Positions 42,930 through 42,956 of a DNA stretch of 64,000 nucleotides are shown here, piece by piece. Source of the DNA: Escherichia coli (GTDB lineage Bacteria > Pseudomonadota > Gammaproteobacteria > Enterobacterales > Enterobacteriaceae). Numbering within the stretch: position 1 is the first letter of the stretch; the number at the start of each line of letters is the position of its first letter. Location of the stretch: NCBI RefSeq assembly GCF_013122565.1, contig NZ_CP053258.1; one strand, given 5' to 3'. The notes under the pieces were generated by a model, which was not told the origin of the DNA, made no database searches, and saw only the letters and a list, made by a program, of their open reading frames with translations. A program made the translations under genes and the position numbers.

Positions 42930-42956
42930 TAAAGATAACCGCAGCGGGGCCGACAT
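42930..42956 (+). promoter_or_regulatory. Sigma-28 (FliA) promoter for aer
   Basis: TAAAGATA-N11-GCCGACAT matches the sigma-28 consensus TAAAGTTT-N11-GCCGATAA, about 50 bp upstream of the aer ATG. Confidence 0.6.

Follow-up and report, generated by a model that had tools for sequence, protein, structure and literature searches.

The motif TAAAGATA-N11-GCCGACAT, which lies at positions 42930-42956 on the + strand of the window (the whole 64,000-nucleotide stretch of Escherichia coli DNA analyzed here), almost certainly comprises the -35 and -10 elements of a single aer promoter that is read by FliA and assisted by CRP, which is an arrangement that is already known. Reading the sequence again returned the motif, its coordinates, its strand, and its N11 spacing exactly as the initial annotation had given them. 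The proposal made there, that a FliA promoter makes aer a late (class 3) member of the flagellar regulon, is proven experimentally for the identical sequence of E. coli K-12 (Hollands, Lee, Lloyd and Busby, 2010, Mol Microbiol 75:1098, PMC2859248; Fitzgerald et al., 2014, PMC4183435), and the primer extension and fliA-mutant comparison by which it could be checked are already published for K-12 with the predicted outcome (PMC2859248; PMC4183435). Regulation by FliA therefore stands, but FliA alone is an incomplete description, because CRP bound at -49.5 is also directly needed.

The site displays the architecture of a sigma-28 class 3 promoter: the -35 octamer contains TAAA, the -10 octamer contains CCGA, and 11 bp lie between them. 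The -35 octamer TAAAGATA (42930-42937, +) corresponds to promoter positions -32 to -25 and is the same in K-12. An 11-nt spacer (42938-42948, +) separates it from the -10 octamer GCCGACAT (42949-42956, +), which features a C at 42954 instead of the consensus T. Positions are numbered according to PMC2859248, in which the T of TAAAGATA is -32, the CGA of the -10 octamer is -11 to -9, and transcription starts 6 bp past the -10 octamer. Transferring this numbering onto the identical sequence of the window would place the aer transcription start at 42962 (+), where the base is C. The predicted aer leader is 44 nt long (42962-43005, +), with an extent that follows from sequence identity to K-12, and contains the Shine-Dalgarno sequence AGGA at 42995-42998, which is part of a AACCTGCA.AGGA block that the alignment shows to be kept across genera.

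The gene downstream of the motif is an intact aer (43006-44526, +), which encodes the 506-aa aerotaxis receptor with Pfam domains PAS_3, HAMP, and MCPsignal. Between the end of the -10 octamer and the ATG of this PAS-HAMP-MCPsignal protein, which starts at 43006 on the strand that the motif requires, there are 49 nt. The aer region has a match in 5,421 of 5,426 complete E. coli genomes, in which the gene is annotated aer. The divergent neighbor is patA (putrescine aminotransferase; 41209-42588, -), for which the start at 42588 is deduced from the TTG start of K-12 and the longest open reading frame extends to 42699. The genes are arranged as in K-12 but in reverse orientation: patA diverges from aer, and equivalents of nfeR and nfeF follow. 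A motif search for a sigma-54 promoter of patA found none in the intergenic region at up to 2 mismatches, with matches across the window at chance level, and neither the patA-aer intergenic region nor the aer leader matched an RNA family in an Rfam scan.

A putative CRP site, AATTGCGATCTAAATCAAATTA (TGCGA-N6-TCAAA; 42902-42923, +), precedes the sigma-28 elements and is the same in K-12. Its half-sites, TGCGA at 42905-42909 and TCAAA at 42916-42920, conform to the pattern TGNGA-N6-TCANA and place the center between 42912 and 42913, which is 49.5 bp upstream of +1 and 17.5 bp before the -35 octamer begins. Farther upstream, an A/T-rich block with the sequence G(C/G)TTTAA (42890-42896, +), around -68, is conserved in the alignment of aer upstream regions. 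In K-12, FeBABE cleavage at -72 and -64 indicated that the alpha-CTDs flank CRP, and a site for alpha-CTD was proposed 18.5 bp upstream of the center of CRP (PMC2859248). By comparison with this mapping, we infer that the block at 42890-42896 is the position of the upstream alpha-CTD contact.

The relevance of the K-12 experiments to the window depends on how closely the two sequences agree. The 116 bp preceding the aer ATG are shared with K-12, and the alignment with MG1655 is free of differences from 42895 to the ATG. The window is not K-12, as its best identity over 701 nt is 98.3% among complete E. coli genomes, and it differs from K-12 at 42885, 42888, and 42891, which adjoin or lie inside the putative upstream alpha-CTD block. 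At 42888 and 42891, K-12 is the odd one out among the E. coli sequences sampled. Among E. coli genomes, 3,533 carry an exact copy of the 64-nt block that reaches from the CRP site to +4, and 1,820 others have 1-3 base differences in it. In all three of the one-mismatch genomes that we examined, the difference was a C-to-T change at 42926, which falls in the spacer that separates the CRP site from the -35 element and thus outside the elements. The 27-mer itself was unchanged in all six aligned sequences, i.e., the window, MG1655, and four other genomes. In a separate observation, E. coli 20Ec-P-124 (L067; NZ_AP017610.1, 3465296-3465503) carries ISApl1, an IS30-family element, directly upstream of the aer -35 element. 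With the insertion in place of the CRP site and of all sequence farther upstream, this locus is a natural CRP-less aer promoter.

Published work on the identical K-12 sequence establishes the promoter, for which the wild type is given as 'TAAAGATA-n11-GCCGACAT' (PMC2859248). Primer extension yielded one product, with a length described as approximate, that places +1 six bp downstream of the -10 octamer (PMC2859248). Promoter activity was abolished by mutation of -32T, -30A, or -28G in the -35 element (PMC2859248, Table 1), and replacement of CGA at -11 to -9 with GCT likewise rendered the promoter inactive (PMC2859248). Deletion of either fliA or crp lowered activity to basal levels; FliA supplied from a plasmid restored the promoter, and the effect of crp persisted when FliA was supplied independently of CRP (PMC2859248). 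In vitro, both transcription and KMnO4-detected melting were observed with E-sigma28, and E-sigma70 gave neither (PMC2859248). CRP binds a single site centered at -49.5, with binding and activation documented by EMSA, by the crp deletion with FliA in trans, and by transcription in vitro. This position is the optimum, and sigma-28-dependent activation was lost when that site was moved to -41.5, -44.5, -54.5, or -61.5 (PMC2859248). Consistent with these findings, ChIP-seq revealed a FliA peak (FAT 21) on TAAAGATAACCGCAGCGGGGCCGACATA (Fitzgerald et al., 2014; PMC4183435, Table 2), and aer RNA stood at 12 in the fliA deletion, compared with 225 in the motile wild type (PMC4183435). A preprint on FliA in Salmonella (10.1101/2020.09.09.289983) names aer solely in a strain genotype. 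Based on the shared sequence, the start site, the dependence on FliA and CRP, the sigma selectivity, and the alpha-CTD positions would be expected to hold in the strain of the window as well.

We also evaluated how well the site matches the sigma-28 consensus, using TAAAGTTT-N11-GCCGATAA as printed in Table 1 of PMC2859248. The site differs from this consensus at four positions, which amounts to a match of 12/16 instead of the 13/16 originally counted, and a search of the whole window at up to 3 mismatches returned zero matches. Sites with up to 4 mismatches numbered 6 on both strands of the 64-kb window, compared with 5.0 +/- 2.3 expected from dinucleotide-preserving shuffles, which indicates that the mismatch count alone at the aer site is at chance level. 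Two of those 6 sites retained both the TAAA and CCGA cores, compared with 0.2 expected. The aer site is distinguished by these intact cores, by its position just upstream of aer, and by its conservation. The other site with both cores, TAAAGATC-N11-GCCGAGGA (35230-35256, +), also matches at 12/16, with a matrix score of 11.9 bits. It lies antisense within an amino-acid permease gene (34415-35848, -; Pfam AA_permease_2) and is absent from 52 published FliA ChIP-seq sites; it is probably a chance match.

For a graded measure, we derived a weight matrix from the FliA ChIP-seq sites with strong binding (FAT >4), which number 24 without aer (Fitzgerald et al., 2014; PMC4183435). With this matrix, the aer site scored 13.2 bits, which was the top score among 127,946 positions in the window. 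Shuffled windows yielded a score of at least 13.2 bits about once per 64 kb, which corresponds to an expectation of 0.0012 for a 150-nt zone on the correct strand upstream of one given gene. Given this shuffled-window score and the chance-level mismatch count, function of the aer site would not be proven by sequence alone. In leave-one-out scoring, the aer site ranked 16th among 25 strong sites, which is inside the range of sites that FliA binds in vivo. Position 6 of the -10 octamer is T in 23 of those 25 sites and A in one, with C at aer alone, and the C at 42954 costs 4.6-5.7 bits. The aer promoter is thus a mid-to-weak sigma-28 site, for which the initial description as near-consensus was an overstatement in view of its 12/16 match, its rank, and its unique C. 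With a matrix of all 51 other ChIP-seq sites, weak ones included, the aer site ranked just 13th in the window. The top match with the all-sites matrix was AAAGCGACCAATTAACAGCGCCGATAAA (8776-8803, +), which is identical to a weak intragenic FliA ChIP-seq site in yqjA (FAT 2, with expression unchanged; Fitzgerald et al., 2014), yet that site is itself part of the training set.

To examine conservation, we searched a genome collection for aer orthologs with a degenerate pattern for the PAS peptide of Aer, which draws on coding sequence and makes no use of the promoter. The search returned 62 loci, of which 11 belong to Enterobacteriaceae (Pluralibacter, two Trabulsiella, Leclercia, four Enterobacter, Yokenella, Kluyvera, and one further isolate); this sample is incomplete, as Escherichia, Salmonella, and Citrobacter are not represented in it even though the pattern matches the window exactly. 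When 300 nt upstream of each gene were scored, the best match to the FliA matrix lay 45-51 nt from the ATG in all 11 Enterobacteriaceae loci, with scores of 10.5-18.0 bits. Alignment of these upstream regions with that of the window revealed conserved islands consisting of TTGCGATC, TAAAG..AA, and (G)CCGA.A, between which the spacers vary freely in sequence with no indels. The TAAAG of the -35 element is invariant or nearly so in the 12 sequences, and the CCGA of the -10 element is invariant across genera. The left half of the CRP site, TTGCGATC, precedes the -35 element at a fixed spacing in 11 of 11 loci and is invariant across all 12 sequences, with no gaps between it and the -10 element, and conservation of the right half-site is poor. 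Eight of the 12 sequences have A at position 6 of the -10 octamer, E. coli and both Trabulsiella have C, and only Kluyvera has T.

Outside Enterobacteriaceae, a high score with the FliA matrix coincided with a gene-proximal position in two Psychrosphaera loci only (L004 and L043). The motifs upstream of these Aer-like genes of Alteromonadales, TAAAGTTC-N11-GCCGATAT (19.6 bits) and TAAAGTTA-N11-GCCGATAG (19.4 bits), are much stronger; they precede the ATG by 84-91 nt, and an obvious CRP site is absent. Two Shewanella loci (L009 and L021) and one Glaciecola locus (L039) featured scores of about 13 bits, but at distances of >200 nt from the ATG. Most loci of Aeromonas, Vibrio, and Shewanella showed no convincing sigma-28 site within 300 nt.

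These observations are consistent with a mechanism in which RNA polymerase containing FliA (sigma-28) would recognize TAAAGATA and GCCGACAT and initiate near 42962, about 6 bp farther downstream. In the -10 element, C replaces a normally invariant T (GCCGAC vs GCCGAT), which would render the promoter intrinsically weak, and the C at 42954 may be the cause of both this weakness and the dependence on CRP. Efficient recruitment would occur only with cAMP-CRP on TGCGA-N6-TCAAA at -49.5, through contacts by AR1 and alpha-CTD, and the polymerase alpha subunits would touch DNA with their C-terminal domains on either side of CRP. High concentrations of E-sigma28 make CRP dispensable at aer (PMC2859248), which fits recruitment to a weak promoter. 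The predicted outcome is an AND gate, in which aer would be on only if FliA has been released by the flagellar cascade, which is late and marks class 3 timing, and CRP is active, as when glucose is scarce. We found nothing that contradicts this explanation.

The alignment raises the possibility that aer promoters across Enterobacteriaceae are kept deliberately weak, which would reflect selection for an obligate FliA-AND-CRP gate on aerotaxis in place of plain class 3 control. We advance this idea tentatively, with rather more doubt than conviction. It is based on the finding that 11 of the 12 sequences have a base other than the consensus T as the sixth of the -10 octamer while all 12 keep the CRP left half at an identical distance, in a sample that is small and phylogenetically non-independent. 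Counting against it, the strong tsr promoter tolerates A at this position. We did not find the point made for aer in the literature cited here, and the joint retention of a non-consensus -10 base and a fixed-spacing CRP site across Enterobacteriaceae genera is the only mildly new point of this analysis.

We considered whether the motif could have arisen by chance, with aer transcribed from another promoter, such as one dependent on sigma-70. The frequency of 12/16 matches (6 observed, 5.0 expected) and the recurrence of scores of at least 13.2 bits about once per shuffled window are what this reading would predict. However, a promoter scan of 42500-43200 found no sigma-70-like promoter, E-sigma70 yields neither the aer transcript nor melting, and point mutations in the motif abolish expression (PMC2859248). 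FliA occupies the site in ChIP-seq (PMC4183435), and the position and core of the motif are kept in 12 Enterobacteriaceae while the spacers drift. For K-12, chance has already been refuted by the published mutants, and for the window we assign it a negligible probability. It is also very improbable that aer is a direct (class 2) target of FlhDC next to which a sigma-28-like motif occurs incidentally. An earlier microarray study, cited in PMC4183435, listed aer as FlhDC-regulated, but PMC4183435 concludes that aer was misidentified as a direct target of FlhDC and that FliA transcribes it, and the restoration of the promoter by plasmid-borne FliA (PMC2859248) likewise argues against this assignment.

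A different concern is that the promoter is genuine but silent in the source strain as a result of an inactive flagellar cascade, e.g., in a non-motile lineage with a lesion in flhDC or fliA. The window carries no information on either locus and is not identical over 701 nt to any complete E. coli genome, which leaves room for such a lineage. On the other hand, aer is intact with all of its domains, and the promoter, CRP site, and leader are unchanged relative to motile K-12, which suggests that decay has not set in. We consider a silent promoter unlikely, albeit the least improbable of these alternatives. Finally, the -35 element is overlapped by the inverted repeat CGGTTA-AAGA-TAACCG (42926-42941), which a scan called terminator-like on the minus strand and which could in principle be the functional unit, either as the site of a dimeric regulator or as a leftward terminator. 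The repeat comprises just 6 pairs, 3 of which are G-C, and its outer pair is changed by the C-to-T difference at 42926 in each of the three one-mismatch E. coli genomes examined. It is missing in the 11 other Enterobacteriaceae, which carry ACAACTAAAGATAAATT. We rejected the inverted repeat as a functional unit because it is not conserved, and a role of this kind would be highly surprising.

The preferred reading, in which FliA and CRP act together at a single aer promoter, can be placed among known systems. The closest counterpart is the K-12 aer promoter, which has the same sequence from the CRP site to the ATG, the same gene, and the same divergent patA, and from which the window differs solely farther upstream, at the three positions given above. 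The trg promoter of E. coli likewise serves a chemoreceptor gene and has CRP centered at -49.5 as its activator, with the same spacing of CRP site, -35 element, and -10 element (PMC2859248). Located at another locus, trg differs in its elements, TAAGTAAT-N11-GCCGATGA: its -10 octamer has the consensus T as the sixth base, and the deviation lies in the -35 element. Canonical class 3 promoters, such as those of tar, flgM, fliC, motA, and tsr, share with aer the sigma factor, the bipartite motif, the 11-bp spacer, and the late timing. However, 14-16 of their 16 positions agree with the consensus, compared with 12 for aer, and CRP either does not bind them or does not act on them directly, whereas aer is weaker and activator-dependent. 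As at class I (-61.5) and class II (-41.5) CRP-dependent promoters of sigma-70, CRP recruits polymerase to aer through AR1 and alpha-CTD. In contrast to those promoters, the CRP center of aer at -49.5 barely works with sigma-70, and a shift to -41.5 or -61.5 destroys sigma-28-dependent activation (PMC2859248).

Because the promoter, start, sigma factor, and activator of aer were characterized between 2007 and 2014 on an identical sequence, the site carries little weight as a discovery. Its significance is that of a calibration case, in which a proven promoter of an alternative sigma factor may score no better than chance by mismatch counting and can be recognized only from which positions match, where the motif is located, and whether it is conserved. 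In biological terms, aerotaxis would be turned on only as flagella near completion and CRP signals carbon limitation, through a CRP position, -49.5, that is unusual and specific to the sigma-28 holoenzyme.

Several features elsewhere in the window were also observed. Rfam matches comprise a tRNA (46354-46426, -), found at the position of ileX in K-12, as well as naRNA4 (CssrE; 30700-30781, +) and ES036 (CssrF; 5831-5873, -). A CS1/Cbl-type operon of four genes for an alternate chaperone-usher pilus spans 10584-15689 (+) and encodes a PapD_N chaperone, a Fimbrial_CS1 major subunit, a TcfC/CooC usher of 900 aa, and a CblD-like initiator. Relative to the K-12 gene order, the operon resembles an insertion of ~5 kb between the equivalents of exuR and exuT.
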